Shown: positions 6,040 through 55,957 of the stretch, in pieces | Numbering within the stretch: position 1 is the first letter of the stretch | Layout of the letters: each line of letters starts with the position of its first letter | Assembly (NCBI GenBank): GCA_963823235.1 | Contig: CAWGKS010000017.1 | Coordinates: 5,050-69,049, forward strand | Source: an uncultured Gammaproteobacteria bacterium | Lineage (GTDB): Bacteria; Pseudomonadota; Gammaproteobacteria; Steroidobacterales; Steroidobacteraceae | DNA length: 64,000 nt | Reading direction: 5' to 3' | Notes under the pieces: model-generated | What the model was told of the DNA's origin: nothing | Databases searched by the model: none | Seen by the model: only the letters and a program-made list of their open reading frames with translations | Made by a program: the position numbers and the translations under genes

Positions 6040-6088
6040 GTCCCACTCTGACTCGACTAAATGCGAATTTCGACGCAATGCCTGGTTT

Positions 6089-8278: not shown

Positions 8279-8301
8279 CTCTCACATTCCGGGTAATCAT
8301 C

Positions 8302-8931: not shown

Positions 8932-8998
8932 GAGGTCATGCCCGATCGGATATCAGGCGCTGCGTCACCACGCCTGCCCTTGCTCACTGGATTCAGAC

Positions 8999-9538: not shown

Positions 9539-9605
9539 ACGCTGACTTGGTTCAACGGCCTGGCCAGGCTGCTCGACGGAGTGTGGCGCCGGGTAGGGCG
9601 GGACG

Positions 9606-17836: not shown

Positions 17837-18009
17837 GTCTCCATCGCACGCAGGCTCGCGCGAATCAGCGGCAGCAGCATGGTCCCTAACCCGGAATGGG
17901 CCATGACCGCCTCCGGCATCCCCTCGTAGCGCCGAACGTGAGCGAGCACCGCTTCATCCGGCCCCGCCGAAGCCGGCGGATGAGGGCCAGGGTCGTTGTG
18001 GCGCTGCAC
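17614..18009 (-). CDS. PKS fragment 8: thioesterase C-terminal half (catalytic Asp/His region)
   Basis: ...PILAICGDADSTVSREEMEGWRVHTCESFQLAIVPGGHFFIHQ... Confidence 0.75.
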   Translation of the reverse strand: MQRHNDPGPHPPASAGPDEAVLAHVRRYEGMPEAVMAHSGLGTMLLPLIRASLRAMETYVAPPLQPLPIPILAICGDADSTVSREEMEGWRVHTCESFQLAIVPGGHFFIHQARSQVLDLVRSQLQRVMTF

Positions 18010-20298: not shown

Positions 20299-26887
<6,589 letters not shown>

Positions 26888-38865: not shown

Positions 38866-39636
38866 AAAGGAACAGTTGCTTCGGCGCTCAGGCGGATCCT
38901 GCCATCAATCACGGTCATCTCGATGCTGGTTGCCCTCTGGTGGCTGCTGGTCGCTGTGACCGGGAGCGCAATCTTCCCGACGCCCTGGCAGGTCGTGACG
39001 GCCACAATGGAGCTGATGCGCGATGGCACGCTGTGGGGTCATATCGGCGCCTCGCTGCTGCGCGTGGGCACCGGCTTCGGCCTGGCCGTGCTGTTTGCAG
39101 TGCCGCTGGGCCTGTGGATGGGGTGGGTAAAAGGCGCGTTTACGACCTTCAATCCGGTGTTTCAGATCCTGCGTCCCATTTCACCGATTGCCTGGATTCC
39201 AATCGCCATACTCTGGTTTGGCGTCGGCAACGCATCGCCGATTTTTCTCATCTTCATGTCGTCGGTATTTCCAATGGTGGTGCAGACCACGGCCGGCGTG
39301 CACACCATCGAGCGACGTTACCTGCGGGCGGCCGAGAATTTCGGGGTGTCGCGCTACACCCTGTTTCGCCGGGTCATCATTCCCGCCGTGCTGCCGCAGA
39401 TCATTGTCGGCATGCGCATCGGGCTGGGCGTGGCCTGGCTGGTGGTGGTCGCTGCCGAGATGATCGCGCTGCGCTCCGGGCTGGGCTACCTGATCATCGA
39501 CTCGCGCAACGCCGGCAATCGCTACGATCTGGTCATCAGCGGCATGATCATCATTGGCCTGATCGGACTGTCACTCGATGGCCTGATGCGCCTGCTGGAA
39601 GGGCTGCGGATAGTGCGGTGGCGCTATGCCCACTAA
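38863..39636 (+). CDS. ABC transporter permease (NitT/TauT family)
   Basis: The C-terminal ~258 aa of ORF 38407..39636 begin MKGTVASALRR. Six hydrophobic helices. GGGAG/GGGGTGG SD-like sequence upstream of ATG 38863. Confidence 0.75.
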   Translation: MKGTVASALRRILPSITVISMLVALWWLLVAVTGSAIFPTPWQVVTATMELMRDGTLWGHIGASLLRVGTGFGLAVLFAVPLGLWMGWVKGAFTTFNPVFQILRPISPIAWIPIAILWFGVGNASPIFLIFMSSVFPMVVQTTAGVHTIERRYLRAAENFGVSRYTLFRRVIIPAVLPQIIVGMRIGLGVAWLVVVAAEMIALRSGLGYLIIDSRNAGNRYDLVISGMIIIGLIGLSLDGLMRLLEGLRIVRWRYAH

Positions 39637-40368
39637 GATTGCAGTCAAGGGCCTGAAAAAAGGCTTTGCGACCAACCAGGGATCGCTGCAGGTCGTCGAC
39701 GATGTCAGCTTTGAGGTCGACGACGGCGAATTCGTCGCCATAGTGGGCCCCTCTGGCTGCGGCAAGACGACCCTGATGAACATGATCGCCGGCTTTGATC
39801 GCCCCGATCCGGGCACGATCACGGTCGATGGCGCGAGCGGCAATGGACCCGAGTTCCAAGGGCATACTCATTTCCCAGCATGGCTCGGTATTCCCCTGGC
39901 TCACGGTGCAGCAGAATCTGATGTTCGGGCTCAACGGCCACGCGCCGCGCAACAAGGAGCAGATCGCCGATCACTATGCCGCCATGGTGGGCCTGAAGGG
40001 CTTCGAGATGAGCTATCCGCACGAGCTGTCGGGCGGCATGCTCAAGCGTGCGGAGCTCGCGCGCGCGCTGGTCGTGAAGCCGGAAATCCTCTACATGGAC
40101 GAGCCGTTCTCGGCGCTCGATGCGCTCATGAGCCTGCGCATGCGCCGGGAACTGCTGCGAATACTGGCAGAGGAACGCCACACGGTCGTGCTCATCACGC
40201 ACGATGTCGAGGAGGCGATACACCTGGCTGACCGCGTCTTTGTGCTGTCGGCCCGTCCGACCAGGATCCAGGCGATCTTCGAGGTACCGTACGCAACATC
40301 CGCGCAAGCTCTCGAGCCCCGAGGTGCAGAACCTCAGAGAGGCCATCCTGCGCGAACTGGGCGCTTAA
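39626..40368 (+). pseudogene. ABC transporter ATP-binding protein (NitT/TauT family), two frame changes
   Basis: Walker A GPSGCGKTT in ORF 39626... Q-loop, signature and Walker B (LSGGMLKRAELARAL...LYMDEPFSALD) plus H-loop (ITHD) in ORF 39795... The expected C-terminus ...HPRKLSSPEVQNLREAILRELGA* is in a third frame ending at 40368. Shifts at ~39830 and ~40290. Confidence 0.8.
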
Positions 40369-40400
40369 GCTGGCGCCGGACGGGCGCGCGCTCAGCTGCG

Positions 40401-40637
40401 TTAGCGGCGCGGCAAGCGCTTGCCGGGTGGCGTAGCGCCGCCCGGATTCCCGGCACTCCAGGCGCTGCCGAGTTTCTCCTCGAGGTAATCACGGATCAGG
40501 CGCCGTACGACCTGGGAGGGCGTTACGTCCTCTGCAGCACAGGTCTTCTCGAATATTGCCTTCTTGCGCGGATCGATCAGCACCGTGAGGCGCGCGGTAC
40601 GTTCTTCGAGAGCGAGCACTTTAGCGTTCCTCAACAT
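40401..40637 (-). CDS. ribbon-helix-helix (CopG/Arc-like) DNA-binding protein
   Basis: 78 aa. ...ARLTVLIDPRKKAIFEKTCAAEDVTPSQVVRRLIRDYL... matches the beta-strand + two-helix RHH pattern. Divergent from the hydrogenase-like operon. Confidence 0.55.
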   Translation of the reverse strand: MLRNAKVLALEERTARLTVLIDPRKKAIFEKTCAAEDVTPSQVVRRLIRDYLEEKLGSAWSAGNPGGATPPGKRLPRR

Positions 40638-40741
40638 TTACATGCCAGGTGCATGGGATGATAATGCAAGGGTAATCAGATTCACAGGGTCGCGCAATGG
40701 CACTTTGTCTCCACTACTGAGCAGATGGCGCAGTCTCCCGC

Positions 40742-42745
40742 ATGACCAGCCCACTCATGCCGCTCGATGCCTGCTGCGTGTTGCTGACTGCGTGGGTGGT
40801 GATTGGCGTGGCCGGTCTGTTGCGGCCGGCCAGCGTGGCCTTTGCCGGCCGCGTGCTGTTTCCACTGGGGGCGCTGTGCGGTGTGGGCCTCGCGCTGGTG
40901 GCAGCGTTGAGCCTGGCCACGCCACCGGAGCAGGCGACGCTGCTGATCGGCCTGCCGGACCTGCCATTTCACCTGCGGCGTGATGCGCTCAGTAGTGTGT
41001 TCCTGTTTCTGCTGGGTGGTGCCTCGGCGGGTATCTCGGTGTTCGCCGCGGGTTACTTCCGCAAAGGCGAGGGCGCACTGCCAGGGCTGCTGTGCCTGGA
41101 ATACCACGTGTTCCTCGCCAGCATGGGTATGGTGCTTTTGGCGGACGACGCCTATGCCTTCATGGTGGCGTGGGAAATGATGGCGCTGTCATCGTATTTT
41201 CTGGTCACCACGCAGCATCGTATTCCGGAGATTCGCCGCGCCGGGTTCATCTACCTGCTGATCGCCCATCTTGGCGCGATCATGATACTGCTGAGTTTCG
41301 GCGTCATGCAGGGCGGCACCTGGCAGTTCACCTTCGATGCGATGCGCACTGCCAGGCTCGATCCGACCTGGTCGACGATCGCCTTCCTGCTGGCGCTGTT
41401 TGGCTTCGGAGCGAAGGCCGGCATCGTGCCACTGCACGTCTGGTTGCCCGAGGCGCATCCGGCGGCGCCCTCGCCGGTTTCGGCGCTGATGAGCGGCGTC
41501 ATGCTGAAGACGGCGGTTTACGGCCTGCTGCGCGTCAGTTTCGATCTGCTGGGCGAATCGCAGTGGTGGTGGGGGCTGGTGGCGCTTTCGTTCGGCCTGT
41601 TTACCGCATTCTATGGCGTCATCTTTGCCGCGGTGCAGACCGACATGAAGCGGCTGCTGGCCTGGTCGTCGATTGAAAACATCGGCCTCATCTTCACGGG
41701 CGTCGGCATCACCGTAGTGTTTCATGGCCTCGGCATGCCCTCGCTGGCGGGCCTGGCGCTGATCGCGACGCTCTATCACTGCGTCAATCACGCCTTCATC
41801 AAGAGCCTGCTGTTCCTGGGCACCGGTGCAGTCCTGCATGCCACGGGCGAGCGCAATCTGGGTCGTCTGGGAGGCTTGATCCAGCGCATGCCATGGGTCG
41901 CATGGCTGACCCTGATCGGCGCCCTGGCCATTGCCGGCCTGCCGCCGCTCAACGGTTTCGTCTCCGAGTGGCTGTTATTGCAGGCGTTCCTGTTTGCTGA
42001 CACGGTGCCGCGTGCCTTCGTCAACATGCTGCTGCCGATGGCTGCCGGGCTGGTTGCCCTGTGCGCCGCGCTTTCCGGCTTCGTCATGGTGAAGTTTTTC
42101 GGCGTGATCTTTCTGGGCCAGCCGCGCGAGAGTTCGCTGGCGCAGGCCCACGATGCCGGCATTCTGGAGCGGATCGGACTCATCTGGCTGGCGCTCGGCT
42201 GCTTCGCCCTTGGCCTGCTGCCGGTGCAGGTGATCGGGCGCCTGGAGTTCGTCACCCGTTATCTGATAGGCGCCGATCTGGGGGCGCGCGCCGGCCAGTG
42301 GTGGTTGCTGGCACCGGACGCGGCGCGGCAGGCGTCGTACAGTCCGGTAGTGTTCTTCGGTGTCGGCAGTGCGGTCCTGCTGCTGAGCTTCTGGCTGGTG
42401 CGCGCTTGCTATCATCGGCGGGTCAGGCGCAGTGCTGCCTGGGACGGCGGTTTCGTGCGCATCAACGCGCGCATGCAGGACACGGCCGAGGGGTTCGGGC
42501 AGCCGATCCGCCACGTGTTTCAATCGTTCTTTCTGGTGGAACGCGAACTGCCCTCGGCCTTTGACGCGGCCCCGCGCTACCGCCTGCTGCTGCTGGACCG
42601 GATCTGGCGTGCTGGCTACGAGCCCCTGGGTCGGCTGGTCAGAAAGCTTGCCGACATTGCCGCGCTGCTCCAGCAGGGACGCATCTCAACCTACCTGACT
42701 TACAGCTTCGTTACGCTGCTGGCGCTGCTGGCGGTGGTGCTGTGA
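40742..42745 (+). CDS. HyfB/HycC-like (NuoL/ND5-type) antiporter-like membrane subunit; EhrA-like
   Basis: 667 aa with ~16 hydrophobic helices. Mrp/NuoL motifs: ...MVAWEMMALSSYFLV..., ...AKAGIVPLHVWLPEAHPAAPSPVSALMSGVMLK... Confidence 0.85.
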   Translation: MTSPLMPLDACCVLLTAWVVIGVAGLLRPASVAFAGRVLFPLGALCGVGLALVAALSLATPPEQATLLIGLPDLPFHLRRDALSSVFLFLLGGASAGISVFAAGYFRKGEGALPGLLCLEYHVFLASMGMVLLADDAYAFMVAWEMMALSSYFLVTTQHRIPEIRRAGFIYLLIAHLGAIMILLSFGVMQGGTWQFTFDAMRTARLDPTWSTIAFLLALFGFGAKAGIVPLHVWLPEAHPAAPSPVSALMSGVMLKTAVYGLLRVSFDLLGESQWWWGLVALSFGLFTAFYGVIFAAVQTDMKRLLAWSSIENIGLIFTGVGITVVFHGLGMPSLAGLALIATLYHCVNHAFIKSLLFLGTGAVLHATGERNLGRLGGLIQRMPWVAWLTLIGALAIAGLPPLNGFVSEWLLLQAFLFADTVPRAFVNMLLPMAAGLVALCAALSGFVMVKFFGVIFLGQPRESSLAQAHDAGILERIGLIWLALGCFALGLLPVQVIGRLEFVTRYLIGADLGARAGQWWLLAPDAARQASYSPVVFFGVGSAVLLLSFWLVRACYHRRVRRSAAWDGGFVRINARMQDTAEGFGQPIRHVFQSFFLVERELPSAFDAAPRYRLLLLDRIWRAGYEPLGRLVRKLADIAALLQQGRISTYLTYSFVTLLALLAVVL

Positions 42746-43692
42746 ACCTGCTTGCGCTCACCACCCAGCTGCTGGAGATCATTCTGGCGGTACTGGCGGC
42801 GCCCATGCTGGTGGGCTGGGTGAATCAGTGCCGTGCGTGGCTGCAGAATCGCAGTGCACCGAGCATCTGGCAACCTTACCGCGGGCTGCACAAGCTTTTT
42901 TACAAGGACGCGGTGGTCGCCATCAACGCCTCGTCGTTGTTTCGCGCCGCTCCCTATGTGGTGTTCAGCTCGATGGTGCTCGCCGCCGCGATTATTCCCT
43001 CGCTCGGCACGCGCCTGCCGTTTACGGTGGCGGCGGACGGTATTGCCCTGGTCGGCCTGCTGGCGACGGCGCGCGTGTTTGTGTCGTTGGCCGCCATGGA
43101 TATCGGCACTGCCTTCGGTACGCTCGGGGCGCGCCGCGAAATGATGATCGGCTTTCTGGCCGAGCCGGCCCTGCTGATGGTGCTGTTTGTCGCGGCGATG
43201 ATTTCGCAGACCACCTCGCTGGCACTGATTGCCGAAAGACTGAGCGGCGGCGCCGTGGTCCTGTATCCGAGCCTGGCCTTCACTGCGGTGGCCTTCACGC
43301 TGGTGCTGCTTGCGGAGAATGCGCGCATTCCGGTCGACAATCCCGCCACGCACCTTGAACTGACCATGATTCATGAAGCCATGTTGCTCGAGTATTCGGC
43401 GCGTCACCTGGCACTCATGGAATGGGCGGCGGCGCTGAAGCTTTTCAACTACGCCTGTATCGGCATTGCGCTGTTTGTGCCGTTTGGCGTTGCGGCCCTG
43501 CCTCACGGGCCGCTCGGCCTGGTTTTCGCGGTGCCGACACTGGCGCTGAAGCTGTTGCTGGCTGGCGTGGCACTGGCAGTGCTGGAGACCGTGTCGGCCA
43601 AACTGCGGGTGTTTCGCGCTCCGGAATTCCTGGCCACCGCGTTTCTGCTGGCGGTGCTTGGCATGCTCGTGCACCTGCTGCTGGGGGCGTGA
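42742..43692 (+). CDS. HyfC/HycD-like (NuoH/ND1-type) membrane subunit; EhrB-like
   Basis: 316 aa. The GTG start overlaps the previous stop. NuoH-like ...AENARIPVDNPATHLELTMIHEAMLLEYS... Confidence 0.8.
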   Translation: MNLLALTTQLLEIILAVLAAPMLVGWVNQCRAWLQNRSAPSIWQPYRGLHKLFYKDAVVAINASSLFRAAPYVVFSSMVLAAAIIPSLGTRLPFTVAADGIALVGLLATARVFVSLAAMDIGTAFGTLGARREMMIGFLAEPALLMVLFVAAMISQTTSLALIAERLSGGAVVLYPSLAFTAVAFTLVLLAENARIPVDNPATHLELTMIHEAMLLEYSARHLALMEWAAALKLFNYACIGIALFVPFGVAALPHGPLGLVFAVPTLALKLLLAGVALAVLETVSAKLRVFRAPEFLATAFLLAVLGMLVHLLLGA

Positions 43693-44363
43693 TCTTGATC
43701 GGCATCCCATTCGACCTGCAGATCCTCAACGTGCTCGCGGCCCTGCTGCTGTTGCTGTCATTCTCGATGCTGGCGCAGCGGCGCATCGTGGTGCTGGTGA
43801 ACCTGCTGGCCACGCAGGGCCTGCTGCTGTTCCTGGCGACCATGCTGCTGGCATGGCGTACCGGCGAGCATCATCTCTATCTGTCCGCCGTCCTGACCCT
43901 GGCGCTCAAGGTGATCGGTCTGCCCTGGCTGTTGCGTCGCCTGATTCACAGCCTCGATGTCTACTGGGACACTGAACTGCTGATCAATCCCTCCGTCACC
44001 ATGCTCATCGGTCTGCTGATTGTGGTGTTCTCATTCGGGCTCGCGCAACCGATCTCCGCCCTTGCCAGCACTGCGACCCGCAGTACGCTCGGTATCGCCA
44101 TCGCCGTCATCCTGCTGGCGTTCCTGACCATGATCACGCGCCGCAAGGCGATGTCGCAGGTGGTGGCGTTCCTGTCGATGGAAAACGGCCTGTTCTTCGG
44201 CGCCATGAGCGCCACTTACGGCATGCCGATGGTGGTCGAGCTGGGCGTGGCACTGGATGTGCTGGTGGCCATGCTGGTGCTCGGTGTGTTCTTTTTTCAG
44301 ATTCGCGAGCAGTTCGACAGCCTCGATCTGCATCATCTCGAAGCCCTGAAGGAGGATGAGTAG
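43689..44363 (+). CDS. HyfE-like (NuoK/MrpC-type) small membrane subunit; EhrC-like
   Basis: ~224 aa inside ORF 43422..44363. Start taken as GTG 43689, overlapping the hyfC-like TGA (GTGA). Multi-helix hydrophobic protein with ...FLSMENGLFFGA... like HyfE. Confidence 0.7.
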   Translation: MILIGIPFDLQILNVLAALLLLLSFSMLAQRRIVVLVNLLATQGLLLFLATMLLAWRTGEHHLYLSAVLTLALKVIGLPWLLRRLIHSLDVYWDTELLINPSVTMLIGLLIVVFSFGLAQPISALASTATRSTLGIAIAVILLAFLTMITRRKAMSQVVAFLSMENGLFFGAMSATYGMPMVVELGVALDVLVAMLVLGVFFFQIREQFDSLDLHHLEALKEDE

Positions 44364-45822
44364 CGTGGGCTTCCTGCTGCTGCTCGGCTGTCCCCTGGCA
44401 GGCGCCGCGGTCCTGGGTATCTGGGGTCATCGGCGCTGGGCGCCCGATGTCAATGTGATTTTCAGCCTGGCAACTTTCGGGGCGGCGTGCGCGGTCACTG
44501 CCCGGGTCATTGCGCATGGCAATCTGCTGGTAGCCCACGAGCAGTTCTTCATTGACCCATTCAATGTGTTTCTGGTCACGCTGACCTCGTTCGTGGCACT
44601 CACGACCTCATTGTTCTCACGTCCCTACATGCGTATCGAGGCGGCTCATGGACGCCTGAGTCCGGGGCGCCTGCGGCTCTATCACAGCATGTATCAGCTG
44701 TTCATCTGCGCAATGCTGCTGGCGCTGACCACCAACAATCTCGGCCTCATGTGGGTGGCCATGGAGGCCGCCACGCTCTCGACCGTGCTGCTGGTGACGC
44801 TCTACCGCACCCCGGCGAGTCTGGAAGCCGGCTGGAAATATTTCATACTTTGTGGCGTCGGCATCGCGCAGGCGCTGTTCGGCACCATGCTGGTGTACTT
44901 CGCTGCCGAGAAGATACTGGGCGGCGCGGGTGTCACGGCATTGCTGTGGACGCATCTGGATGTCGTCAAGACGCAGCTCGAGCCCAGGGTGCTGAGTCTC
45001 GCGTTCGTGTTCCTGCTGGCCGGCTACGGCACAAAAGTGGGACTGGTGCCGCTGCACAACTGGTTGCCCGATGCGCATGCCGAAGGTCCTACGCCTATTT
45101 CCGCCGTGCTTTCCGGCCTGCTGCTCAATGTGGCGATGTATGCCGTGGTCCGCTGCAAGATCCTGGTAGAAGGCTCGCTGCAGTCGGCGCTGCCCTCGCA
45201 CATGCTGATGGGCTTTGGCCTGACTTCGGTGGTCGTGGCCTCCCTGCTGCTGTGGCGACAGCGCGATATCAAACGACTGTTCGCCTACTCGTCCATCGAA
45301 CACATGGGCATCATCACTTTTGCCTTTGGCATGGGTGGGCCGGTGGCGAATTTCGCGGCGCTGCTGCACATGACGGTGCATTCGCTGACCAAGTCGGCGA
45401 TCTTCTTCACTGTCGGGCATGCCTCGCAGAAGGCAGGATCGCAGCTCATCGAGAATATCCGTGGCCTGCTTACCCTGAGTCCGGCAATTGGCTGGGGCCT
45501 CATGCTCGGTTCGCTGGCGATTCTCGGCCTGCCGCCATTCGGGGTGTTCGCCAGTGAGTTCCTGATTCTCACCACGGCCATGAAAGACCATGCCTGGGCA
45601 ACGCCGATACTGCTGGTGGCGCTGGGCGTCGCCTTTGCGGCGATCTTCGGCAAGGTGCAGCCGATGGTGTTCGGTGAAACGACGGTGCGGCGCCTGCCGC
45701 ACGCGCCCGCGCTGCTGCCGGTCTTCGTGCATCTGGGTCTGGTGCTGATGCTGGGCATCTACGTGCCGCCATACCTTGCCAACTGGTATCGCGAAGCGGC
45801 GCTACTGATCGGAGGTCACTGA
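44356..45822 (+). CDS. HyfF/HyfD-like (NuoM/N-type) antiporter-like membrane subunit; EhrD-like
   Basis: 488 aa. ...GTKVGLVPLHNWLPDAHAEGPTPISAVLSGLLLNVAMY... GTG 44365 is a possible alternative start, since the spacing to the GGAGG is better. Confidence 0.85.
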   Translation: MSSVGFLLLLGCPLAGAAVLGIWGHRRWAPDVNVIFSLATFGAACAVTARVIAHGNLLVAHEQFFIDPFNVFLVTLTSFVALTTSLFSRPYMRIEAAHGRLSPGRLRLYHSMYQLFICAMLLALTTNNLGLMWVAMEAATLSTVLLVTLYRTPASLEAGWKYFILCGVGIAQALFGTMLVYFAAEKILGGAGVTALLWTHLDVVKTQLEPRVLSLAFVFLLAGYGTKVGLVPLHNWLPDAHAEGPTPISAVLSGLLLNVAMYAVVRCKILVEGSLQSALPSHMLMGFGLTSVVVASLLLWRQRDIKRLFAYSSIEHMGIITFAFGMGGPVANFAALLHMTVHSLTKSAIFFTVGHASQKAGSQLIENIRGLLTLSPAIGWGLMLGSLAILGLPPFGVFASEFLILTTAMKDHAWATPILLVALGVAFAAIFGKVQPMVFGETTVRRLPHAPALLPVFVHLGLVLMLGIYVPPYLANWYREAALLIGGH

Positions 45823-45823
45823 A

Positions 45824-47368
45824 GTGCCGCTGGCCCGCTGGTGGTCGAAGGCGCAGCCTGTGCCTGGCAGCACTGGTGCAGCGGAGCTGCTGGTTGATGC
45901 AACCCTGTGGATAGAGGTGGCGCGCGATATTGCGGCAGCCGGCGGTCAGCTGGCGGCCTTGTGGGGTACTGCGAGTGACGGCGCCGGCGAGCGCGCCACC
46001 ATGCGTGCCGCCTATCTGGTCCAGGCGCGCTTGCTGGTGGTGACGCTGCCCGTGACCGATATCACTCAGCCCGCTCGCAGCCTGCATGAACTGTTTCCCG
46101 CGGCCCTCAGAATGCAGCGCGCGGCCTTCGACCTGTGCGGCATCCGTAGCGCCGCGCCGGATCAACGACCCTGGCTGCGCCATGCCGCCTGGCCCGCATC
46201 GTGGCACCCGCTGCAGTCCACGACCACGCAGCCTGCGATCGTCGCCAACTCGATCGACGACTATGAATTCGTGCGCGTCGACGGCGACGGCGTTCATGAG
46301 ATCGCCGTCGGGCCTGTGCACGCCGGAATCATTGAGCCCGGGCACTTTCGCTTCTCGGTCGTGGGCGAGAAAGTGTTGCGTCTCGAGCAGCGGCTCGGCT
46401 ACGTGCACAAGGGCATCGAACGCCGCTTCACCGAAATGGCGCTTAGCGGGGCACAGCGCCTGGCAGCGCGTATCTGCGGTGATTCCGCCGTGGCGTTCTC
46501 CTGGGCCTACTGCCAGGCGGCCGAGGGGCTGATGCAGATTCAGGTGCCGTCTCGCGCACTCTACCTGCGCGCGCTCGCGCTCGAGCTCGAGCGCCTGCAG
46601 AATCACCTCGGTGATCTTGGTGCCCTGGGGAACGATGCTGGTTTTGCCTTTGGCCTCACACAGTTCTCCATGTTGAAGGAGCGACTGCTGCGCGCCATGG
46701 TGGCCGCGCTCGGGCAACGCTATCTGTTCGATTGGCTGGTGCCCGGCGGGGTCGCGAAAGATGTCGAAGCGCCGCGCCTGGCTGAGCTCGCCGCACTCAC
46801 CCATGAGATTGCCGGCCGGGTCCACGAGCTGCGACAGGTCTACGAGGAGCATTCCGGGGTGCGGGATCGCTTTGTCGGCGCCGGGCAGATAGCCCCGGAG
46901 CTCGCGCAGCGGCTTGGCCTCACCGGCCTCGCCGGGCGTGCCAGCGGCCAGGCCTTCGACCTGCGCGCCGATCAACCGTGGCCGCCGTACGATCAGCTTG
47001 GCGTAACGAAATGTGTCCGCCACGAAGGCGATGTCGCCGCGCGTGTGGCCGTGCGCTTCGACGAGCTGCACGAGACCTGTGTGCTGATCAGCCGGATTGC
47101 CCGGGAACTGCCAGCCGGGGCAGTGCAGGTGAGTGCCGCTGCGCCGATCACCGCAGGCCTGGCGGTGGGTCTCATCGAGGGCTGGCGTGGACCAGTATTG
47201 CTCGCACTGCAGGTCGGTGCTGATGGCGCCATTGTGCGCTGCCATGCACATGATCCTTCCTGGCAGAACTGGCCGGCGCTCGAGCATGCCATCATCGGCA
47301 ATATTGTCCCGGATTTTCCCTTGATCAATAAATCGTTCAATCTTGCCTACAGCGGGCACGATCTCTAG
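45824..47368 (+). CDS. NuoC-NuoD fusion / HycE-HyfG-like 'large subunit' lacking NiFe cysteine ligands; EhrL-like
   Basis: 514 aa. Conserved GPVHAGIIEPGHFRFSVVGEKVLRLEQRLGYVHKGIE. The L1 site reads RICGDSAVAF (expected RxCGxCxxxH). The C-terminus reads SFNLAYSGHDL* (expected DPCxxCxxR/H plus extension). Confidence 0.85.
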   Translation: MPLARWWSKAQPVPGSTGAAELLVDATLWIEVARDIAAAGGQLAALWGTASDGAGERATMRAAYLVQARLLVVTLPVTDITQPARSLHELFPAALRMQRAAFDLCGIRSAAPDQRPWLRHAAWPASWHPLQSTTTQPAIVANSIDDYEFVRVDGDGVHEIAVGPVHAGIIEPGHFRFSVVGEKVLRLEQRLGYVHKGIERRFTEMALSGAQRLAARICGDSAVAFSWAYCQAAEGLMQIQVPSRALYLRALALELERLQNHLGDLGALGNDAGFAFGLTQFSMLKERLLRAMVAALGQRYLFDWLVPGGVAKDVEAPRLAELAALTHEIAGRVHELRQVYEEHSGVRDRFVGAGQIAPELAQRLGLTGLAGRASGQAFDLRADQPWPPYDQLGVTKCVRHEGDVAARVAVRFDELHETCVLISRIARELPAGAVQVSAAAPITAGLAVGLIEGWRGPVLLALQVGADGAIVRCHAHDPSWQNWPALEHAIIGNIVPDFPLINKSFNLAYSGHDL

Positions 47369-47374
47369 GACATC

Positions 47375-47905
47375 ATGCTGAAGACTTTGCGCACCATCGC
47401 CGGCATCGGCATCGTTACCGAACCGGTTCCCGCCACCGACGAGTCGCTGCGGCTGTGCGACCAGCTGCAGGAAAATATCCGCACGGTCATTGGCCGCGCC
47501 CTGTGCATCCGTCATGTCGATGCGGGCTCGTGCAACGGCTGTGAACTCGAGATCCATGCGCTTGGCAACCCGATGTACAACATTGAAGGCTTAGGGATAC
47601 GCTTCGTCGCCAGCCCCCGTCATGCCGACCTGCTGCTGGTCACCGGGCCGGTCTCGCGGCATATGGAAACGGCGCTGCAGCGCACGTACACCGCCACTCC
47701 TGATCCAAAGCTGGTCGTGGCGGTCGGCGATTGCGGTTGCACGGGCGGCATTTTCGGAGAGAGCTATGCCAGCGTCGGTCGCGTCGCCAACCTAATCCCG
47801 GTCGACGTGCAGATTCCAGGTTGCCCGCCCACGCCGCTGCGCGCTGTTGCAGGGGATATTGACGGCAATCGCGAAAAGCCCGCAGGCCGCGGGCGTCACC
47901 CTTAA
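47375..47905 (+). CDS. NuoB/HycG-like small subunit with intact [4Fe-4S] cysteines; EhrS-like; last ~20 codons probably frameshifted
   Basis: DAGSCNGCELE, VAVGDCGCTGG and IPGCPPTP are all present. After GCPPTPL the alternative frame reads ALLQGILTAIAKS...* (stop at 47912). That matches the NuoB/HycG GCPPxPxALLxGIL pattern better than the called tail RAVAGDIDG... Confidence 0.8.
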   Translation: MLKTLRTIAGIGIVTEPVPATDESLRLCDQLQENIRTVIGRALCIRHVDAGSCNGCELEIHALGNPMYNIEGLGIRFVASPRHADLLLVTGPVSRHMETALQRTYTATPDPKLVVAVGDCGCTGGIFGESYASVGRVANLIPVDVQIPGCPPTPLRAVAGDIDGNREKPAGRGRHP

Positions 47906-47932
47906 GTCCTGATCGGTTTCCCCGCCCGGCGC

Positions 47933-48277
47933 TCAGCGCCTGGCGCGGGATGCCGGCGCGCCCCATAGCTGCGCCTGGCTGGCAAAGCGCTGCGCCATAT
48001 GGCCGCAGACCAGATCACACAACTGGTACACGCGCGGGTCGGCGATGCGATAGAAAGCGTTGGTGCCCTGCGCCGAGCGATCCACCAGGCCGTGACGCAT
48101 CAGCGTTGCCAGGTGCCTGGAAATATTGGCCTGGCTGGAATCGAGCAGCTCGGTGAGCTCGCCAACATTGCGCGCTTTTTCGCGCAAGCCGTTCAGGATC
48201 CTGAGTCGCATAGGTTCCGAGAGGGCCCGAAAGTATTCGGCAACGTGGCCCAGTGCCTGATCGTCCAGTGCCTTCAT
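47933..48277 (-). CDS. ArsR/SmtB-family transcriptional regulator
   Basis: ...FRALSEPMRLRILNGLREKARNVGELTELLDSSQANISRHLATLMRHGLVDRSAQGTNAFYRI... is a winged HTH. C-terminal CDLVC pair. Start set at ATG 48277 within ORF 47933..48346. Confidence 0.85.
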   Translation of the reverse strand: MKALDDQALGHVAEYFRALSEPMRLRILNGLREKARNVGELTELLDSSQANISRHLATLMRHGLVDRSAQGTNAFYRIADPRVYQLCDLVCGHMAQRFASQAQLWGAPASRARR

Positions 48278-48298
48278 AGGTATATATCTCCAATTGCA

Positions 48299-48320
48299 TA
48301 TATCGCTATAGAACGATATA
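48299..48320. promoter_or_regulatory. candidate ArsR operator: perfect 7-bp inverted repeat TATATCG-N8-CGATATA in the divergent promoter region
   Basis: Read directly in the AT-rich 68-bp gap between the arsR-like start (48277) and the MFP start (48346). Confidence 0.45.
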
Positions 48321-48345
48321 GTAAGGCAAGCACGGAGAGTTTGCA

Positions 48346-49350
48346 ATGAAGTCGTGGTTTGCAGTTTGTGTTACGGGAGTCCTGCTCAGTCCGTTGGCCG
48401 GGGCCGCACCACCCGGCACGCTTACGGTACGCGCCGAGGCTGCCAGTGAGCGCTATTCAGCCACGGGCACCATCGAGGCCGTAAGGCAGGGCACGCTTGG
48501 TGCGCAGGTCTCAGGTCGCGTCATAAAAGTGCTGGTGCGCAACGGCGACGCCGTCAGGGCGGGCCAGCCACTGATACAGATTGATGCGGGTGAGTCCGGA
48601 GAAGCGGTGCTCGCCAGTAGCGCGGCGGCACGTGGCGCTGCCGCGCGGCTGGTCAGCGCACGTGCGGACTTTGCGCGCTCGCAGCGGCTGCAGGCGCAGG
48701 ACTACCTCAGTACCGCTGCCCTGCAACGCGCCGAGGCGGCTTTGGCCTCAGCCGAGGCCGAGGCTCAGGCCACTGCGGCCCAGGCGCAGGGCGCCCGTAC
48801 GCGGGCCGCCTGGCACACCGTGACCGCGCCTTATTCGGGCCGTGTCACAGATCTCTGGGTAAGCGCCGGGGATCTGGCGACGCCGGGTATGCCGCTGCTG
48901 GCGCTCTATGATCCGGCCGCTCTGCGCGTGATCGCGCAGTTGCCTGAATCGCTGGCGGCGCGGGTCCAGTCGGACCAGGTGGCCCAGCTGGCAGTCGCTG
49001 ATGCCGCACCGATTGCAATCGCCTCCTGGCGGGTGATTCCCGCCGTTGATCCCGCGACCCATAGTGTCGAGGTCCGGGCGGAGCTGCCGGAGGGGAGTGG
49101 TTTCAGGCCGGGGCAGTTCGCCAGGCTGCTGTTGCCGCTGCAGGACTCCACTTCACAGTTGCGCATCCCGCTCAGCGCGCTTGTGAGGCGCAGCGAAGTC
49201 GTGGGTGTCTACGTGGTCGAGGCCAACGGTGCCGCGCATCTGCGCCAGCTGCGGCTCGGTCCGGTGAGCGGCAATTCGGTGACGGTGCTGGCGGGACTCC
49301 AGGCCGGTGAGCAGATCGCGCTCGATCCCGTGGCCGCCGGGAGACAGTAG
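48346..49350 (+). CDS. RND efflux membrane-fusion (periplasmic adaptor, HlyD-family) protein
   Basis: 334 aa with a signal peptide. Lipoyl-like and coiled-coil (Ala/Gln/Arg-rich hairpin) segments, followed by beta-barrel segments. Lies immediately upstream of the RND pump. Confidence 0.8.
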   Translation: MKSWFAVCVTGVLLSPLAGAAPPGTLTVRAEAASERYSATGTIEAVRQGTLGAQVSGRVIKVLVRNGDAVRAGQPLIQIDAGESGEAVLASSAAARGAAARLVSARADFARSQRLQAQDYLSTAALQRAEAALASAEAEAQATAAQAQGARTRAAWHTVTAPYSGRVTDLWVSAGDLATPGMPLLALYDPAALRVIAQLPESLAARVQSDQVAQLAVADAAPIAIASWRVIPAVDPATHSVEVRAELPEGSGFRPGQFARLLLPLQDSTSQLRIPLSALVRRSEVVGVYVVEANGAAHLRQLRLGPVSGNSVTVLAGLQAGEQIALDPVAAGRQ

Positions 49351-49358: not shown

Positions 49359-52300
49359 ATGGGTGTCGCTGGACGCATTGCCAGGTATTTCCAGTCCGCG
49401 CGCATCACGCCGCTGCTGGCGCTGGTGGCGTTGCTGATGGGCCTGTTCGCGGCCCTGGTGACGCCGCGTGAAGAAGAGCCGCAAATCAATGTGACCATGG
49501 CCAATGTGCTGATTCCCTGGCCTGGCGCCTCGGCGCGGCAAGTGGAGCAGTCAGTTGCAGGTCCTGCTGAGCAGGTGCTCGGGCAGATGGCGGGTCTCGA
49601 ACATGTGATGTCGGTGTCGAGGCCTGGAATCGCCATCATCACGGTGCAGTTCAAAGTCGGCGTGCCCAGGATCGAGGCACTGGTTCGTCTCTACGACACG
49701 ATCAATTCCAATCGCGACTGGCTGCCCGCCGGGCTCGGTGTCGGGGAACCGATTGTCAAACCCAAGGGCATCGATGATGTCCCGATACTGACGGCCACTC
49801 TTTACGACCAGCGGCCCGGCAGTGGCGGCTTCGAACTTGAACGCATTGCCCATGCCATGGAGGCCGATCTCAAACGCGTGGCGGGAACGCGGGAAGTCTT
49901 GACCATCGGCGGGCCAAAGCGCGCGATCAACATCGTTCTCGATCCGCAGGCGCTGCGCGCCGTGGGCGTCACGATCGCGGATCTGCGCCGCACCCTGCAA
50001 TCGGTCAACTCAGGGTTGCCGGCCGGCAATATAGTCAGTGGCGATGAAGCCGTGGCGATCGACGGCGGCGGGCTGCTGGAGAACGCCGATGCGGTGGCCG
50101 ATCTCGTCGTCGGCGTGCACGCCGGACGTCCGGTGTTCCTGCGTGACATTGCCCACATCAGTGACGGCGCGCCACCCCCCGAACACTATGTCTGGTACGG
50201 CACGGCGGGCCAGCATGCCGCCGAGTTTCCGGCCGTGACCCTGAGCGTCACCAAGAAGCCCGGCGAGAACGCCGTGGCTGTCACCTCACGCCTGCGGGCC
50301 CGCATCGCCGAACTGCACAACACCGTGATTCCCGAGGGAGTGGGCGTGGAGATCTCGCGCGACTACGGCGCGACGGCCAACGAGAAGGCCGTCAAACTCA
50401 TCGAGAAACTGCTGTTCGCTACCACCGCGGTCGTGGCACTGGTGTTCTTCGCGATGGGCCGACGGGAAGCGGCCATCGTCGGCATTGCCGTGGCCCTGAC
50501 GTTGACGGCAACCCTGTTCGCTTCCTGGGCCTGGGGCTTTACGCTCAATCGCGTCAGCCTGTTCGCGCTGATCTTCTCGATCGGCATCCTGGTCGATGAT
50601 GCCATTGTGGTGGTGGAAAACATTCATCGTCATCTGCAGCTCACGCCCGGGCGCGCGCTGAGCGAGATCATCCCCGAGGCCGTGGATGAAGTGGGCGGAC
50701 CGACGATCCTCGCGACCTTCACTGTCATCGCGGCGCTCCTGCCGATGGCCTTCGTCGGCGGTCTGATGGGCCCCTATATGGGCCCGATCCCCATCAATGC
50801 TTCCATGGGCATGCTGATCTCGCTGGCGGTGGCATTCGTGCTGACGCCGTGGCTCGCGCGGCTGTGGTTGCGGCCGGTTGCAGGCGCTGCTCACTCAAGC
50901 TGGTCGGCGCGCCTCGAGCCCGGATTCCGGCGCCTGTTCCTGCCGTTTCTGGATCCGCTGCACGGGCAGCGCAATCGCCGGCGCCTGTGGGCGGGAGTAG
51001 GGGTGATGATTCTGCTGGCCATCGCCCTGCCTGCGATCCAGTGGGTAGTGCTCAAGATGCTGCCCTTCGACAACAAGTCGGAATTTCAGGTGGTCCTCGA
51101 CATGCCGGCTGGAACGCCGCTCGAGCGCACGGCCTCGACGCTGGCCGACCTGAGTCGCTACCTCGCGCAGGTTCCGGAAGTAAGTAATTACCAGGTGTAC
51201 GCCGGTCTTGCGGCGCCCATAAACTTCAATGGCCTCGTGCGGCAATACTACCTGCGCTCAGGCGGCACCCTGGGGGACATCCAGGTGAATCTCGTGGACC
51301 GGAACAGGCGCAGCGATCAGAGCCATGCGATCGCCGAGCGGCTGCGTCCGGCGCTGGCCACAATTGCGCGTCGTCATGGCGGCATCGTCAAGGTGGTCGA
51401 GGTGCCGCCGGGTCCACCAGTACTCGCGCCTATCGTTGCCGAGATCTACGGCCCGGATGACGCGGGTCGATTGCGGGTTGCGCAGGCGGTGCGCACTGCG
51501 TTTCTGCGTGCGCCGGGCATCGTCGACGTCGACGCCTCGTATATTGCGCCGGCGCCGCGCCAGCTGGTGTCAATCGACCGGCCGAAGGCCGCGCGTCTGG
51601 GCGTCAACGACGCCGATATCGTGAGCACATTGCGGGCAGGCATCGCCGGTGAGGATGCGAGCTACCTTGAGGATGCAAGCAAGTATCCGGCGCCGCTGCG
51701 TCTGCAACTACCCGACAGTACGCACGGCAGCCTCGATGCCGCGCTGAGCCTGGGCGTGCGCGCCGCCAACGGTGCGCTGGTCCCGCTCGGTTCCCTGGTC
51801 GAGGTGCACAACACTTCGGTCGAGCAGCCGCGCTTCCACAAGGATCTGCTGCCACTGGTGTACGTCACGGGTGACATGGCGGGCAAGCTCGATAGCCCGC
51901 TTTACGGGATGTTTGCCATGCGCGGGGCGATTGGCCGGATCGTGGCACCGGATGGCGGCGGCATCACCGAGTACTTTGTTCGCCAGCCCTCCGATCCCTA
52001 TCGTGGCTACGCGCTCAAGTGGGACGGGGAATGGCAGATCACCTATGAAACCTTTCGCGACATGGGTGCGGCCTATGCGGTGGGTCTTATCCTGATCTAC
52101 CTGCTGGTAGTGGCCCAGTTTGGCTCCTATGTCACGCCGCTGATCATCATGGCGCCGATTCCGCTGACGATTCTTGGTGTGTTGCCCGGCCACGCCCTGC
52201 TGCGCTCGCAGTTCACCGCTACCTCGATGATTGGCATGATCGCGCTGGCTGGAATCATCGTGCGCAACTCGATCCTGCTGGTCGACTTCATCAATCTGCA

Positions 52301-52574
52301 GCTGGGCGCGGGCGTGGAGTTCCGCGAGGCCGTGATTCGCTCGGCCGCTACGCGCGCGCAGCCGATCGTGCTCACCGCCCTGGCCGCGATGCTGGGCGCC
52401 TTTTTCATCCTCAGCGATCCCATCTTCAACGGGCTGGCGATTTCGTTGATCTTCGGCATCCTGGTCTCGACCGTCCTGACCCTGGTCGTGATTCCACTGC
52501 TCTATTACGCCGTGTATCGCCACGCGCATCCCATTCCTCAACCGCCACCTGTCCTACCGGAGCAAACACCATGA
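49359..52574 (+). CDS. RND efflux permease (AcrB/CzcA superfamily)
   Basis: 1071 aa with 12 TM segments in 1+5/1+5 arrangement and two large periplasmic loops. Conserved ...SIGILVDDAIVVVENI... and ...GIIVRNSILLVDF... Confidence 0.9.
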   Translation: MGVAGRIARYFQSARITPLLALVALLMGLFAALVTPREEEPQINVTMANVLIPWPGASARQVEQSVAGPAEQVLGQMAGLEHVMSVSRPGIAIITVQFKVGVPRIEALVRLYDTINSNRDWLPAGLGVGEPIVKPKGIDDVPILTATLYDQRPGSGGFELERIAHAMEADLKRVAGTREVLTIGGPKRAINIVLDPQALRAVGVTIADLRRTLQSVNSGLPAGNIVSGDEAVAIDGGGLLENADAVADLVVGVHAGRPVFLRDIAHISDGAPPPEHYVWYGTAGQHAAEFPAVTLSVTKKPGENAVAVTSRLRARIAELHNTVIPEGVGVEISRDYGATANEKAVKLIEKLLFATTAVVALVFFAMGRREAAIVGIAVALTLTATLFASWAWGFTLNRVSLFALIFSIGILVDDAIVVVENIHRHLQLTPGRALSEIIPEAVDEVGGPTILATFTVIAALLPMAFVGGLMGPYMGPIPINASMGMLISLAVAFVLTPWLARLWLRPVAGAAHSSWSARLEPGFRRLFLPFLDPLHGQRNRRRLWAGVGVMILLAIALPAIQWVVLKMLPFDNKSEFQVVLDMPAGTPLERTASTLADLSRYLAQVPEVSNYQVYAGLAAPINFNGLVRQYYLRSGGTLGDIQVNLVDRNRRSDQSHAIAERLRPALATIARRHGGIVKVVEVPPGPPVLAPIVAEIYGPDDAGRLRVAQAVRTAFLRAPGIVDVDASYIAPAPRQLVSIDRPKAARLGVNDADIVSTLRAGIAGEDASYLEDASKYPAPLRLQLPDSTHGSLDAALSLGVRAANGALVPLGSLVEVHNTSVEQPRFHKDLLPLVYVTGDMAGKLDSPLYGMFAMRGAIGRIVAPDGGGITEYFVRQPSDPYRGYALKWDGEWQITYETFRDMGAAYAVGLILIYLLVVAQFGSYVTPLIIMAPIPLTILGVLPGHALLRSQFTATSMIGMIALAGIIVRNSILLVDFINLQLGAGVEFREAVIRSAATRAQPIVLTALAAMLGAFFILSDPIFNGLAISLIFGILVSTVLTLVVIPLLYYAVYRHAHPIPQPPPVLPEQTP

Positions 52575-52783
52575 CTACCTGGCAACTTACCCGTGTCATC
52601 GCCGGATCATTCATCCTGCTGTCACTTGCGCTCGGCGTGCCGGGCAGTCCGATTTTCCACAGCAGCTACTGGTTGTGGTTCACGGCATTCGTCGGCGTGA
52701 ACCTGCTGCAAAGCGGCCTGACACGCTGGTGTCTGATGGAACGCATGCTGCGCAGACTGGGCCTCCGCGCCAGCAGCGATTGA
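52571..52783 (+). CDS. DUF2892 (YgaP C-terminal-domain-like) two-helix membrane protein
   Basis: 70 aa. ...RVIAGSFILLSLALG...WLWFTAFVGVNLLQSGLTRWCLMERMLRRLG... matches the DUF2892 pattern (conserved FTGxCP-like TRWC). Its start overlaps the RND stop (ATGA). Confidence 0.65.
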   Translation: MTTWQLTRVIAGSFILLSLALGVPGSPIFHSSYWLWFTAFVGVNLLQSGLTRWCLMERMLRRLGLRASSD

Positions 52784-55516: not shown

Positions 55517-55957
55517 ATGAAACCCTACCCTCATACCTATAGCGTCAGCGCCCATGGATCTGCCACCGGAACCGTTCCGGTTTCCGCTCAGGGCCTGCCA
55601 GATATCGCAACCGCACCCCCGCCGGAGTTCGATGGACCCGGAGACGTCTGGTCACCCGAGTCACTCCTGGTTGCAGCGGTGGCCAACTGCTTCATCCTGA
55701 CTTTCCGCGGCGTGTCGCGGGCGGCCAAATTCAACTGGGAGCGGCTGGAGTGTCAGGTCGATGGGGTGCTGGAGCGAGTCTCCGGCGTGACACGGTTTTC
55801 GAAATTCACGACCCGTGCCACCCTGGGGGTGAGCGCGGGCGCGGATCATGCCAAGGCGCAGGAATTAATGGAGCGCGCCGAGAAACTCTGCCTGGTCGCC
55901 AACTCGCTGCATGGCGAACGCCATCTGGTGGCTGAGGTTATTGAGACCATGGGATGA
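55517..55957 (+). CDS. OsmC/Ohr-family protein
   Basis: 146 aa. ...SPESLLVAAVANCFILTF... and ...KLCLVANSL... are the two conserved Cys contexts of the OsmC fold. Confidence 0.7.
   Translation: MKPYPHTYSVSAHGSATGTVPVSAQGLPDIATAPPPEFDGPGDVWSPESLLVAAVANCFILTFRGVSRAAKFNWERLECQVDGVLERVSGVTRFSKFTTRATLGVSAGADHAKAQELMERAEKLCLVANSLHGERHLVAEVIETMG

Follow-up and report, generated by a model that had tools for sequence, protein, structure and literature searches.

The question raised by this locus is what a membrane complex built like hydrogenase-4 does once its large subunit has lost the Ni-Fe site. The stretch of DNA analyzed, called the window from here on, comprises 64,000 nucleotides of contig CAWGKS010000017.1 (assembly GCA_963823235.1) from an uncultured gammaproteobacterium of the Steroidobacteraceae, and six of its genes, tightly packed at 40742-47905 of the + strand with all frames intact, follow a hyfB-C-E-F-G-I-like order. 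The operon is a member of the known Ehr (Ech/energy-converting hydrogenase-related) family and is thus not new: its large subunit carries PF00346 and PF00329 and no CxxC pairs, its small subunit the NuoB-like [4Fe-4S] cysteines, and its membrane arm is of Mrp/NuoL type, with two PF00361 matches, together with a HycD/NuoH-type subunit. Subunit set, gene order, ligand loss and FeS cysteines all bear out the Ehr-type assignment made by an earlier note, which had been written from the sequence alone. In our reading the operon probably encodes a functional Ehr-type redox-coupled ion-translocating complex, and not a hydrogenase. Its genes are the following:

40742-42745, + strand: HyfB/EhrA-like antiporter-type membrane subunit (NuoL/MrpA/HycC class), 667 aa; NF005086, PF00361
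42742-43692, + strand: HyfC/EhrB-like subunit (HycD/NuoH class), membrane anchor of the peripheral arm, 316 aa; PF00146
43689-44363, + strand: HyfE/EhrC-like small membrane subunit, 224 aa from GTG 43689; NF008556
44356-45822, + strand: HyfF/EhrD-like second antiporter-type subunit (NuoM/N/MrpD class), 488 aa; NF005045
45824-47368, + strand: EhrL, NuoC-NuoD fusion "large subunit" without Ni-Fe site, 514 aa; PF00329 and PF00346
47375-47905, + strand: EhrS, NuoB/HycG-like small subunit with intact [4Fe-4S] motif, 176 aa; PF01058

The six-subunit, hyf-colinear operon described by the earlier note is found with the sizes, order and positions given there, and the family models agree with it. The overlapping or adjacent start and stop codons it mentioned are also present, as 4-nt overlaps of B with C (42742-42745) and C with E (43689-43692), an 8-nt overlap of E with F (44356-44363), a 1-nt spacer between F and G before 45824 and a 6-nt spacer between G and I before 47375; so packed, the six genes are a predicted translationally coupled operon. 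The mechanical list of open reading frames (ORFs) lets hyfE start at an upstream ATG, 43422, and its start is probably best placed at GTG 43689, which overlaps the hyfC stop by 4 nt.

HyfB scores 853 bits with NF005086 ("hydrogenase 4 subunit B", cut-off 667) and HyfF 852 bits with NF005045 ("hydrogenase 4 subunit F", cut-off 543), HyfC matches PF00146 at 1e-29, EhrL matches PF00346 at 6e-34 as well as PF00329, and EhrS matches PF01058 at 3.6e-30; because the E-values are so low, chance family matches are excluded. HyfE reaches 93.6 bits with NF008556, under the 136 cut-off of this model, covering profile positions 4-215 of 216. Searched against solved structures, four subunits find their best sequence match in chains of E. 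coli formate hydrogenlyase (FHL), namely HycC for HyfB (7z0s_C, 1.7e-60, with MrpA chains at 5e-43 and 1.5e-39), HycD for HyfC (7z0s_D, 1.1e-29, the only other match being MbhM at 8.9e-15, with no NuoH chain at E<=1e-3), HycE for EhrL (7z0s_E, 8.9e-59 by phmmer, against only 1.8e-20 for MbsL) and HycG for EhrS (7z0s_G, 4.8e-36). The best PDB match of HyfF is MbsH (6u8y_H, 1.6e-36). Since the PDB search gave nothing closer than these chains, the structure of an Ehr complex has apparently yet to be solved. The window as a whole had no match in Rfam.

The earlier note had read three of the four Ni-Fe cysteines as absent and had proposed an alignment of the large subunit; comparison with HycE, over frames that are intact, confirms the ligand substitutions. 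In the phmmer alignment the L1 site RICGDSAVAF stands opposite HycE RVCGICGFAH, and at the L2 site NLAYSG, within the C-terminus NLAYSGHDL, stands opposite DPCYSC. The second Ni-Fe cysteine is replaced by Ser221, the third by Ala508 and the fourth by Gly511, the L1 His has become Phe, and only the first cysteine (C218) is kept. Measured by the four-Cys definition of group 4 [NiFe]-hydrogenases (RxCGxCxxxH, DPCxxCxxR), EhrL with three of four cysteines gone falls outside that group, and by the absence of CxxC Ni-Fe pairs it falls within Ehr, whose family pattern is R-x-[SAC]-G-D-[ST] and N-L-S-Y-[SA]-G. EhrL stops three residues past the last ligand position, and the C-terminal extension that the earlier note had listed as missing is indeed absent; its absence is, however, not diagnostic, because the nearest four-Cys relatives likewise end in C-x-D-R without an extension, which makes it a lineage trait and not a result of metal loss. 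A search for records with exactly the EhrL sequence was negative.

The relatives place these substitutions in a family context. The ligand cysteines at positions 2-4 are absent in the 120 closest homologues and in 77 of the 94 full-length representatives of 50% identity clusters, and the pocket statistics given here compare these 77 cysteine-less representatives with the 17 four-Cys ones. For 95 close homologues the L1 site was read, and the position of Cys218 holds Ser 79 times and Cys 16 times; among the 77 diverse cysteine-less representatives it is Ser (52), Ala (14) or Cys (10). Since it is mostly Ser or Ala in relatives, the retained cysteine is incidental and no family feature. Of the 77 cysteine-less representatives, 73 have Asp220, 69 have Asp271, a position taken by Gly in 14/17 four-Cys relatives, and 60 have Asp477, where all 17 four-Cys relatives have Ser; position 508 is Ser in 67/77 (Ala508 in the window copy), Gly511 is kept in 73/77, and the C-terminal Arg of hydrogenases is replaced by Leu in 57/77. 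The former Ni-Fe pocket is thereby predicted to carry a family-specific set of Asp220, Asp271 and Asp477, the replaced ligand positions being themselves conserved.

An alignment with plant NDUFS2 sets R-I-C-G-D-S opposite R-L-D-Y-V-S, and Asp271 opposite the Asp of H-A-M-D-V-G, 52 residues downstream. The Tyr and Asp of NDUFS2 aligned in this way we take to be the complex I quinone-site residues (Tyr87 and Asp139 of T. thermophilus Nqo4, with the pair His38-Asp139). Inspection of the quinone pocket, also suggested by the earlier note, shows Gly219, invariant in the family, at the Tyr position and Asp271 at the Asp position. EhrL hence does not reproduce the quinone site defined by Nqo4 Tyr87 and the His38-Asp139 pair, the His position falling in a loop of uncertain alignment; a pocket in which the Tyr is gone and the Asp present agrees with an intermediate position of Ehr, between hydrogenases and complex I.

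The AlphaFold2 monomer of EhrL has a pTM of 0.85 and a mean pLDDT of 79.5, and Foldseek ranks HycE first (7z0s_E, TM 0.85/0.83, 27% identity) and the fused NuoCD of E. coli complex I next. Most of the model lies above a pLDDT of 90. Values below 50 are confined to two segments, residues 147-196 and residues 487-514, which are the most conserved ones of the protein, and are consistent with segments that become ordered only in contact with the small subunit and HyfC. Conservation within EhrL is highest in the N-terminal loop GPVHAGIIEPGHFRF and the last 30 residues.

Residue conservation in the other subunits was analyzed in alignments of 34-73 relatives, depending on the subunit. In agreement with the earlier note, EhrS keeps all four [4Fe-4S] cysteines: C53, C56, C120 and C150 align with the cluster ligands of HycG and are invariant in 73 relatives. 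The charged "pump" residues that a working antiporter-like subunit should have, E145, K225, H346, H350, K354 and E409 of HyfB (58 relatives), and E137, K227, H338, H342, K346 and E401 of HyfF, are at least 95% conserved, and the TM7 Lys and TM5 Glu align with those of MbhH and MbsH. HyfC has 134 of its 316 positions at least 95% conserved, and HyfE a conserved M-E-N-G motif.

All six genes are under purifying selection. The ratio of nonsynonymous to synonymous substitution rates (dN/dS), taken against the two closest relatives (L002 and L001), lies at 0.04-0.12 in the membrane subunits, at 0.16-0.19 in EhrL and at 0.19-0.29 in EhrS, HyfF being the most conserved gene of the operon with ~80% identity among Steroidobacteraceae-type loci and a dN/dS of 0.04. 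The B-C-E-F-G-I order is kept in 80 loci from Gammaproteobacteria (many of them Steroidobacteraceae), Burkholderiales, Acidobacteriota and Myxococcota, except in L028, where nothing upstream of G was matched, and likewise on Rhizobium pRL11. Purifying selection, conserved residues and fixed gene order thus point to a functional machine and not a relic, and pseudogenisation was rejected on dN/dS and conservation. In one locus, L082 (2.27-Mb contig, 4909-10022), hyfB-hyfF of an otherwise syntenic Ehr operon are called as many short pieces, and this fragmentation resembles frameshift errors from long-read assembly more than decay.

Where electrons would enter the complex is a separate matter. The operon has no ferredoxin-type subunit (HyfA/HycB, HyfH/HycF), its six contiguous genes leaving no room for one, NuoI, NuoA and NuoJ are missing from operon, window and conserved flanks, and no MrpB/E/F/G-like gene was found among the operon genes. 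The earlier note had found the window free of hyp, hycI, formate dehydrogenase (FDH), HycB/HycF and NuoEFG genes, and Pfam scans of 46 further window ORFs, including every large ORF of a rough gene call, give the same picture for these 64 kb, which are 1-2% of a genome and say little about it as a whole. Furthermore, the flanking ORFs of the 80 loci and the window were clustered wherever they reached 70 aa, and the only recurring families were RHH_9 (33 loci), a spermidine-synthase-like protein (15 loci) and ArsR (8 loci). A conserved electron-input partner (NuoI/HycF-, HycB-, FDH- or NuoEFG-like) is not among them, although ferredoxins below 70 aa would escape such a search; since neither a ferredoxin nor an FDH nor a flavoprotein is linked to the operon in this clustering, the lack of an electron-input module holds for the family and not merely for the window.

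A mechanism compatible with these data can be outlined. A soluble cytoplasmic carrier, or an unlinked partner enzyme, would bind straight to the face formed by EhrS and EhrL, where FHL, Ech, MBH and complex I have a NuoI/HycF-type ferredoxin subunit as a cover. Electrons would pass through the single [4Fe-4S] cluster of EhrS to, or from, a small substrate held where EhrL, EhrS and HyfC meet, in a remodelled pocket that may be lined by Asp220, Asp271, Asp477 and Ser/Ala508. The redox step could then be coupled via HyfC and HyfE to movement of H+ or Na+ through HyfB and HyfF, in either direction, i.e. as redox-driven ion export or as reverse electron flow driven by the membrane potential, with the divergently encoded RHH_9 protein presumably controlling expression from a sigma-70-type promoter. 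In its boldest form, which we put forward tentatively and regard as possible rather than probable, Ehr would be a distinct energy-converting enzyme, a complex-I-type ion pump, working forward or in reverse, whose single N2-like cluster swaps electrons directly with a soluble carrier, no ferredoxin-type connecting subunit intervening, and whose reaction site is a pocket lined with carboxylates (Asp220, Asp271, Asp477, with Ser) in place of the Ni-Fe centre, one possible example being an oxidoreductase between a low-potential carrier and quinone or another small acceptor in aerobic soil bacteria, nitrifiers and acidophiles.

Several points weigh against a redox-coupled pump. For none of the Ehr complexes is a donor, an acceptor or an activity known, so that the coupling is deduced from homology. 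With one cluster and no ferredoxin-type connecting subunit, the cytoplasmic electron path would be unprecedented in the superfamily. EhrL and EhrS evolve faster than the membrane subunits (~60% against ~80% identity among Steroidobacteraceae-type loci), which would also suit a peripheral arm with a lesser, non-catalytic role. The AlphaFold2 model is unreliable precisely in the pocket-forming stretches, so that the three Asp are at most putative neighbours in space, and a quinone acceptor is not supported, because HyfC matches only HycD and MbhM and the quinone-site Tyr is a Gly.

According to the main rival explanation, HyfB, HyfF and HyfE would form a redox-independent Mrp-like cation/proton antiporter, with the EhrL/EhrS arm as a structural cap or as a gating redox or metal sensor. 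The antiporter-like subunits are indeed the most conserved (~80% identity, dN/dS 0.04-0.12), HyfB matches MrpA chains (5e-43 and 1.5e-39), no electron-input module lies nearby, either in the window or in the 80-locus flanks, and the former active site, now an acidic Asp-rich pocket, could bind a cation. We nevertheless hold it to be unlikely: the four cluster cysteines are invariant, the best-conserved parts of EhrL are GPVHAGIIEPGHFRF and its last 30 residues, the loops by which complex I and FHL couple redox chemistry to the membrane, and known Mrp antiporters need MrpB/E/F/G, absent here, and work without any NuoB/C/D/H-like subunit. Equally doubtful is a ferredoxin or flavodoxin:quinone oxidoreductase resembling photosynthetic NDH-1, or its reverse, a quinol:ferredoxin reductase driven by the membrane potential, with the quinone in a complex-I-like pocket. 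Asp271 aligns with the quinone-site Asp of complex I and is Ehr-specific with respect to the four-Cys relatives, a NuoH-family subunit is present, and most hosts are aerobes or facultative organisms that contain quinones (Steroidobacteraceae, Burkholderiales, Rhizobium, Acidobacteriota), from all of which a quinone substrate is possible; yet the Tyr position is an invariant Gly, HyfC resembles HycD and MbhM in sequence and not NuoH, and there are no equivalents of NuoA/J and NuoI, which help to build the quinone chamber and electron path of complex I.

Far less credit can be given to an MBS-like sulfane-sulfur or polysulfide reductase using the NuoB-type cluster as catalyst and tied to the SQR-like gene downstream. 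MBS of P. furiosus is a precedent for a complex without Ni-Fe site, MbsH is the best PDB match of HyfF (1.6e-36), and the window does contain an SQR-like flavoprotein, OsmC and a TauE-type exporter, but EhrL is far closer to HycE (8.9e-59) than to MbsL (1.8e-20), a MbsN/NuoI-like subunit and an MBS-type Mrp module are missing, and the sulfur-related neighbours are not conserved, the ArsR-efflux block occurring only in L001, L002 and L081 and no sulfur gene family recurring in the 80 loci. Least probable of all are a genuine hydrogenase and a decaying one. The former would be an H2-evolving hydrogenase-4/FHL-2 core whose partners (FdhF, HyfA/H, Hyp) are encoded elsewhere, as the best NCBIfam models (hydrogenase 4 subunits B and F, both above cut-off), the closest sequence and structure relatives (HycC, HycD, HycE and HycG of E. 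coli FHL) and the rise of Geobacter Ehr proteins on formate (PMC7894505) might suggest. Against it, three of four Ni-Fe cysteines are gone here and all four in most relatives, HydDB classes the A. ferrooxidans subunit as a non-hydrogenase (PMC7735108), the 64-kb window has no hyp, hycI or fdhF, and H2 does not induce Ehr in N. moscoviensis (PMC12342949). The latter, a former hydrogenase operon that drifts after losing its active site, as asserted for Geobacter Ehr (PMC13194489), would account for the lost ligands and the lower conservation of EhrL/EhrS relative to the membrane subunits, and one paper does treat Ehr as non-functional; six intact, translationally coupled frames with dN/dS of 0.04-0.29, gene order and hundreds of invariant residues kept across phyla, replaced ligand positions that are conserved (Ser/Gly and three new Asp), and proteins detected in Geobacter (PMC7894505) make it just as hard to credit as a working hydrogenase. 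The redox-coupled, ion-translocating complex thus stays the reading we favour.

Concerning regulation, two elements precede the operon:

40401-40637, - strand: RHH_9 ribbon-helix-helix (RHH) protein, 78 aa, divergent from the operon; PF19839, 82.7 bits, 1.7e-23
40637-40665, + strand: sigma-70-like promoter TTTACA-17 nt-GATAAT, 10/12 matches, ~76 nt upstream of the hyfB ATG

The divergent RHH regulator announced by the earlier note is therefore in place. Its orthologues, of 70-90 aa with the core RTARLTxLIDPRKKxxFExLCAxEDxTPSQVVRxLIR, adjoin hyfB in 33 loci, and as Ehr neighbours they were seen here only in Gamma- and Betaproteobacteria. The gene is divergent from hyfB in Gammaproteobacteria and co-directional in the Burkholderiales loci L051, L055, L063, L072 and L073, where it lies at most 37 nt upstream of hyfB or overlaps its start by 3 nt. 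The TTTACA-17-GATAAT site is the sole promoter-like site in 40300-48450, its -10 word ATGATAAT recurs in 9/16, and ATTATAAT in 6/16, of the divergent RHH-hyfB intergenic regions, and a palindrome, CATGCCAGGTGCATG (40641-40655), lies inside the promoter spacer and is a candidate RHH operator. Judging by this conserved placement, the RHH_9 protein is likely a dedicated transcriptional regulator of the operon. Other lineages have another small DNA-binding gene at the same spot, an XRE-type helix-turn-helix (HTH) gene in Rhizobium and ArsR plus a spermidine-synthase-like gene in Acidobacteriota, and at the CH34 locus an ORF with a basic tail abuts hyfB at the place taken by RHH in other Burkholderiales. 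On pRL11 of R. johnstonii 3841 (L084, 3458-11970; operon RL_RS31230-31255) the XRE-type HTH protein has 98 aa and its gene overlaps hyfB by 4 nt; a DUF4365 gene follows the operon there.

The family is widespread. Clustered at 50% identity, the relatives of EhrL at E<=1e-30 form 959 groups, and Ni-Fe cysteines are missing from most of the top 150. GTDB species-representative genomes contain at least 592 matching stretches, and the operon is carried by thousands of genomes; hosts include nitrifiers and metal-resistant and plant-associated bacteria. Among the matches listed, EhrL is 90% identical to a copy in a gammaproteobacterial metagenome-assembled genome (MAG) and 85% identical to one in a Steroidobacteraceae MAG, by which similarity the host was placed. 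Cysteine-less copies in cultured organisms are found on the chromid of C. metallidurans CH34 (58% identity over 89% of the query, C-terminal end KSFNLSYAGHDL) and on pRL11 of R. johnstonii 3841 (RTSGDSTVAY and KSFNCSYSGHDL). RefSeq labels the latter large subunit "NADH-quinone oxidoreductase subunit C", and some other Rhizobium records call it "hydrogenase expression protein HypE", which is a mis-annotation. Ehr was reportedly named in Geobacter by Coppi in 2005, and the wider class is said to have been defined by Marreiros et al. in 2013. Rv0082-0087 of M. tuberculosis is presumably a similar six-gene set with an ArsR regulator, on which we do not rely.

In the literature, hyfBCEFGI clusters are described for C. 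metallidurans CH34 (Rmet_4666-4671) and C. necator H16 (H16_A2196-2201) (PMC2864759), and a search by these locus tags found only the CH34 genome paper. The catalytic subunit of hyfBCEFGI of A. ferrooxidans is assigned to a HydDB class that is a non-hydrogenase (PMC7735108), and Nitrospira has the same six-gene cluster (PMC5596200, PMC10284858, PMC12342949). The Ehr subunits of G. sulfurreducens have been detected as proteins, most abundantly on formate (PMC7894505), and H2 does not induce Ehr in N. moscoviensis (PMC12342949). The statement of the earlier note that substrate and role of Ehr have not been established experimentally agrees with papers up to July 2025, which call its function unknown (PMC12342949). 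One 2026 paper takes Geobacter Ehr as non-functional (PMC13194489), and the selection data would argue against this as a general statement on Ehr.

Downstream of the operon lie the following features:

47933-48346, - strand: ArsR-family regulator, divergent from the + strand efflux set
48346-49350, + strand: membrane fusion protein (MFP)
49359-52574, + strand: AcrB-type RND pump
52571-52783, + strand: 70-aa membrane ORF
52800-54194, + strand: TolC-like ORF
near 54230 (likely start) to 55503, + strand: SQR-like flavoprotein
55517-55957, + strand: OsmC

Of the ArsR-regulated sulfide/efflux operon placed here by the earlier note, the ArsR gene, the efflux set and the SQR-like gene are present. 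The ArsR-MFP-RND block is common only to the closest relatives L001, L002 and L081, and a functional tie of these genes to the Ehr operon was rejected for this reason; being linked only in the closest relatives, they are probably unrelated to the complex. A TauE-type exporter is also within the window, and a beta-class carbonic anhydrase (57456-58082, - strand) lies between two OsmC-like genes near fliM/fliN, ~10 kb downstream of the operon, where it is not conserved beside Ehr in other loci.

The spermidine/spermine-synthase-like gene (~250-275 aa; PF01564, 6.5e-11) is absent from the window and directly flanks the Ehr operon in 15/80 loci (L021, L024, L029, L033, L042, L048, L051, L052, L055, L064, L067, L070, L072, L074 and L077), upstream of hyfB or downstream of hyfI, in Burkholderiales, Acidobacteriota and some Gammaproteobacteria. 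An ATPase of an ABC transporter (39626-40661, + strand), upstream of the RHH gene, is split over two frames. The ORF at 39626-40231 encodes Walker A and that at 39795-40661 the remaining motifs (Q-loop, signature and Walker B), the latter running on in a long 3' tail across the RHH gene of the opposite strand; the split is due either to a frameshifted pseudogene or to an assembly error. Farther away, positions 1-6000 have a GC content of ~50-54%, against ~64% in the remainder, with two ORFs (2303-2710 and 3349-3771) without Pfam match, and may be foreign or mobile DNA. A 1225-aa polyketide-synthase (PKS) ORF at 20299-23976 (- strand) starts with the C-terminal part of a ketosynthase, followed by acyltransferase (AT) and dehydratase (DH) domains; near it are a phosphopantetheinyl transferase (27021-27845), a thioesterase (17954-18418) and an MMPL transporter (15401-17836), and the whole looks like a PKS cluster with a probable frameshift.

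Ehr complexes stand between group 4 hydrogenases and complex I and are very common, and labels such as "hydrogenase 4" or "NADH-quinone oxidoreductase subunit C" mislead metabolic reconstructions on H2 and formate metabolism. Once the substrate is identified, models of numerous bacteria of soil and water would gain a respiratory or ion-pumping module that they now lack, and the evolution of complex I from hydrogenases would become clearer. Reports of this operon in cultured bacteria go back to 2005-2010, and the window itself makes the function of the family no more testable; tractable hosts of the same operon are C. necator H16, C. metallidurans CH34, R. johnstonii 3841, Burkholderia and Paraburkholderia. 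What the present analysis adds is the variability of the first cysteine, the set of pocket Asp residues, the purifying selection with invariant pump residues, and RHH_9 as the sole widely conserved neighbour, with no electron-input partner linked in the 80 loci. The three-Asp pocket is a defined, mutable signature, and the small dedicated regulator offers a handle on the inducing condition.

Compared with known systems, the closest relatives of five of the six subunits, and the hyf core gene order, are those of E. coli hydrogenase-4 (HyfABCDEFGHIJ) and FHL-1 (7Z0S); HyfF has the HyfF model (NF005045) as its best family match and MbsH instead as its best solved-structure match. Unlike these enzymes, the window system is without the Ni-Fe cysteines, HyfA/HycB, HyfH/HycF, HyfD, HyfJ, HyfR, FdhF and a C-terminal maturation peptide. 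With complex I/NDH-1 it has in common the homologous NuoB, C, D, H, K-like and L/M/N-like modules, a single N2-type cluster beside a pocket without Ni-Fe, and Asp271, aligned with the quinone-site Asp of NuoD; it differs by the absence of NuoA, NuoJ, NuoI and NuoEFG, the change of the quinone Tyr to Gly, a HycD-type anchor, and two antiporter-like subunits in place of three. P. furiosus MBS/MBX (6U8Y) is, like Ehr, of group-4-hydrogenase lineage, has lost the Ni-Fe site and is still an energy-converting enzyme, whereas MBS has 13 subunits, with the NuoI-like MbsN and a full Mrp module, against six in the window, and MbsL matches EhrL at only 1.8e-20. Mrp antiporters are an MrpA-G set without the NuoB/C/D/H peripheral module, and the window complex has a peripheral arm. 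Within the family, the upstream regulator changes with lineage, being RHH_9 in the window, an XRE-type HTH in Rhizobium and ArsR with a spermidine-synthase-like gene in Acidobacteriota, and the window copy differs from its CH34 and Rhizobium relatives by its host, an uncultured Steroidobacteraceae-like gammaproteobacterium, and by the Cys kept at the first ligand position. Ehr of Geobacter sulfurreducens (GSU0739-0745; EhrA-D, EhrL and EhrS; names from PMC7894505) has an extra ehrA copy and, as judged from the names of its subunits, the same kinds of subunits, a large subunit without Ni-Fe ligands and a membrane-bound complex. The clusters of CH34, H16, A. ferrooxidans and Nitrospira share with the window the same six genes in the same order (PMC2864759, PMC7735108, PMC5596200).

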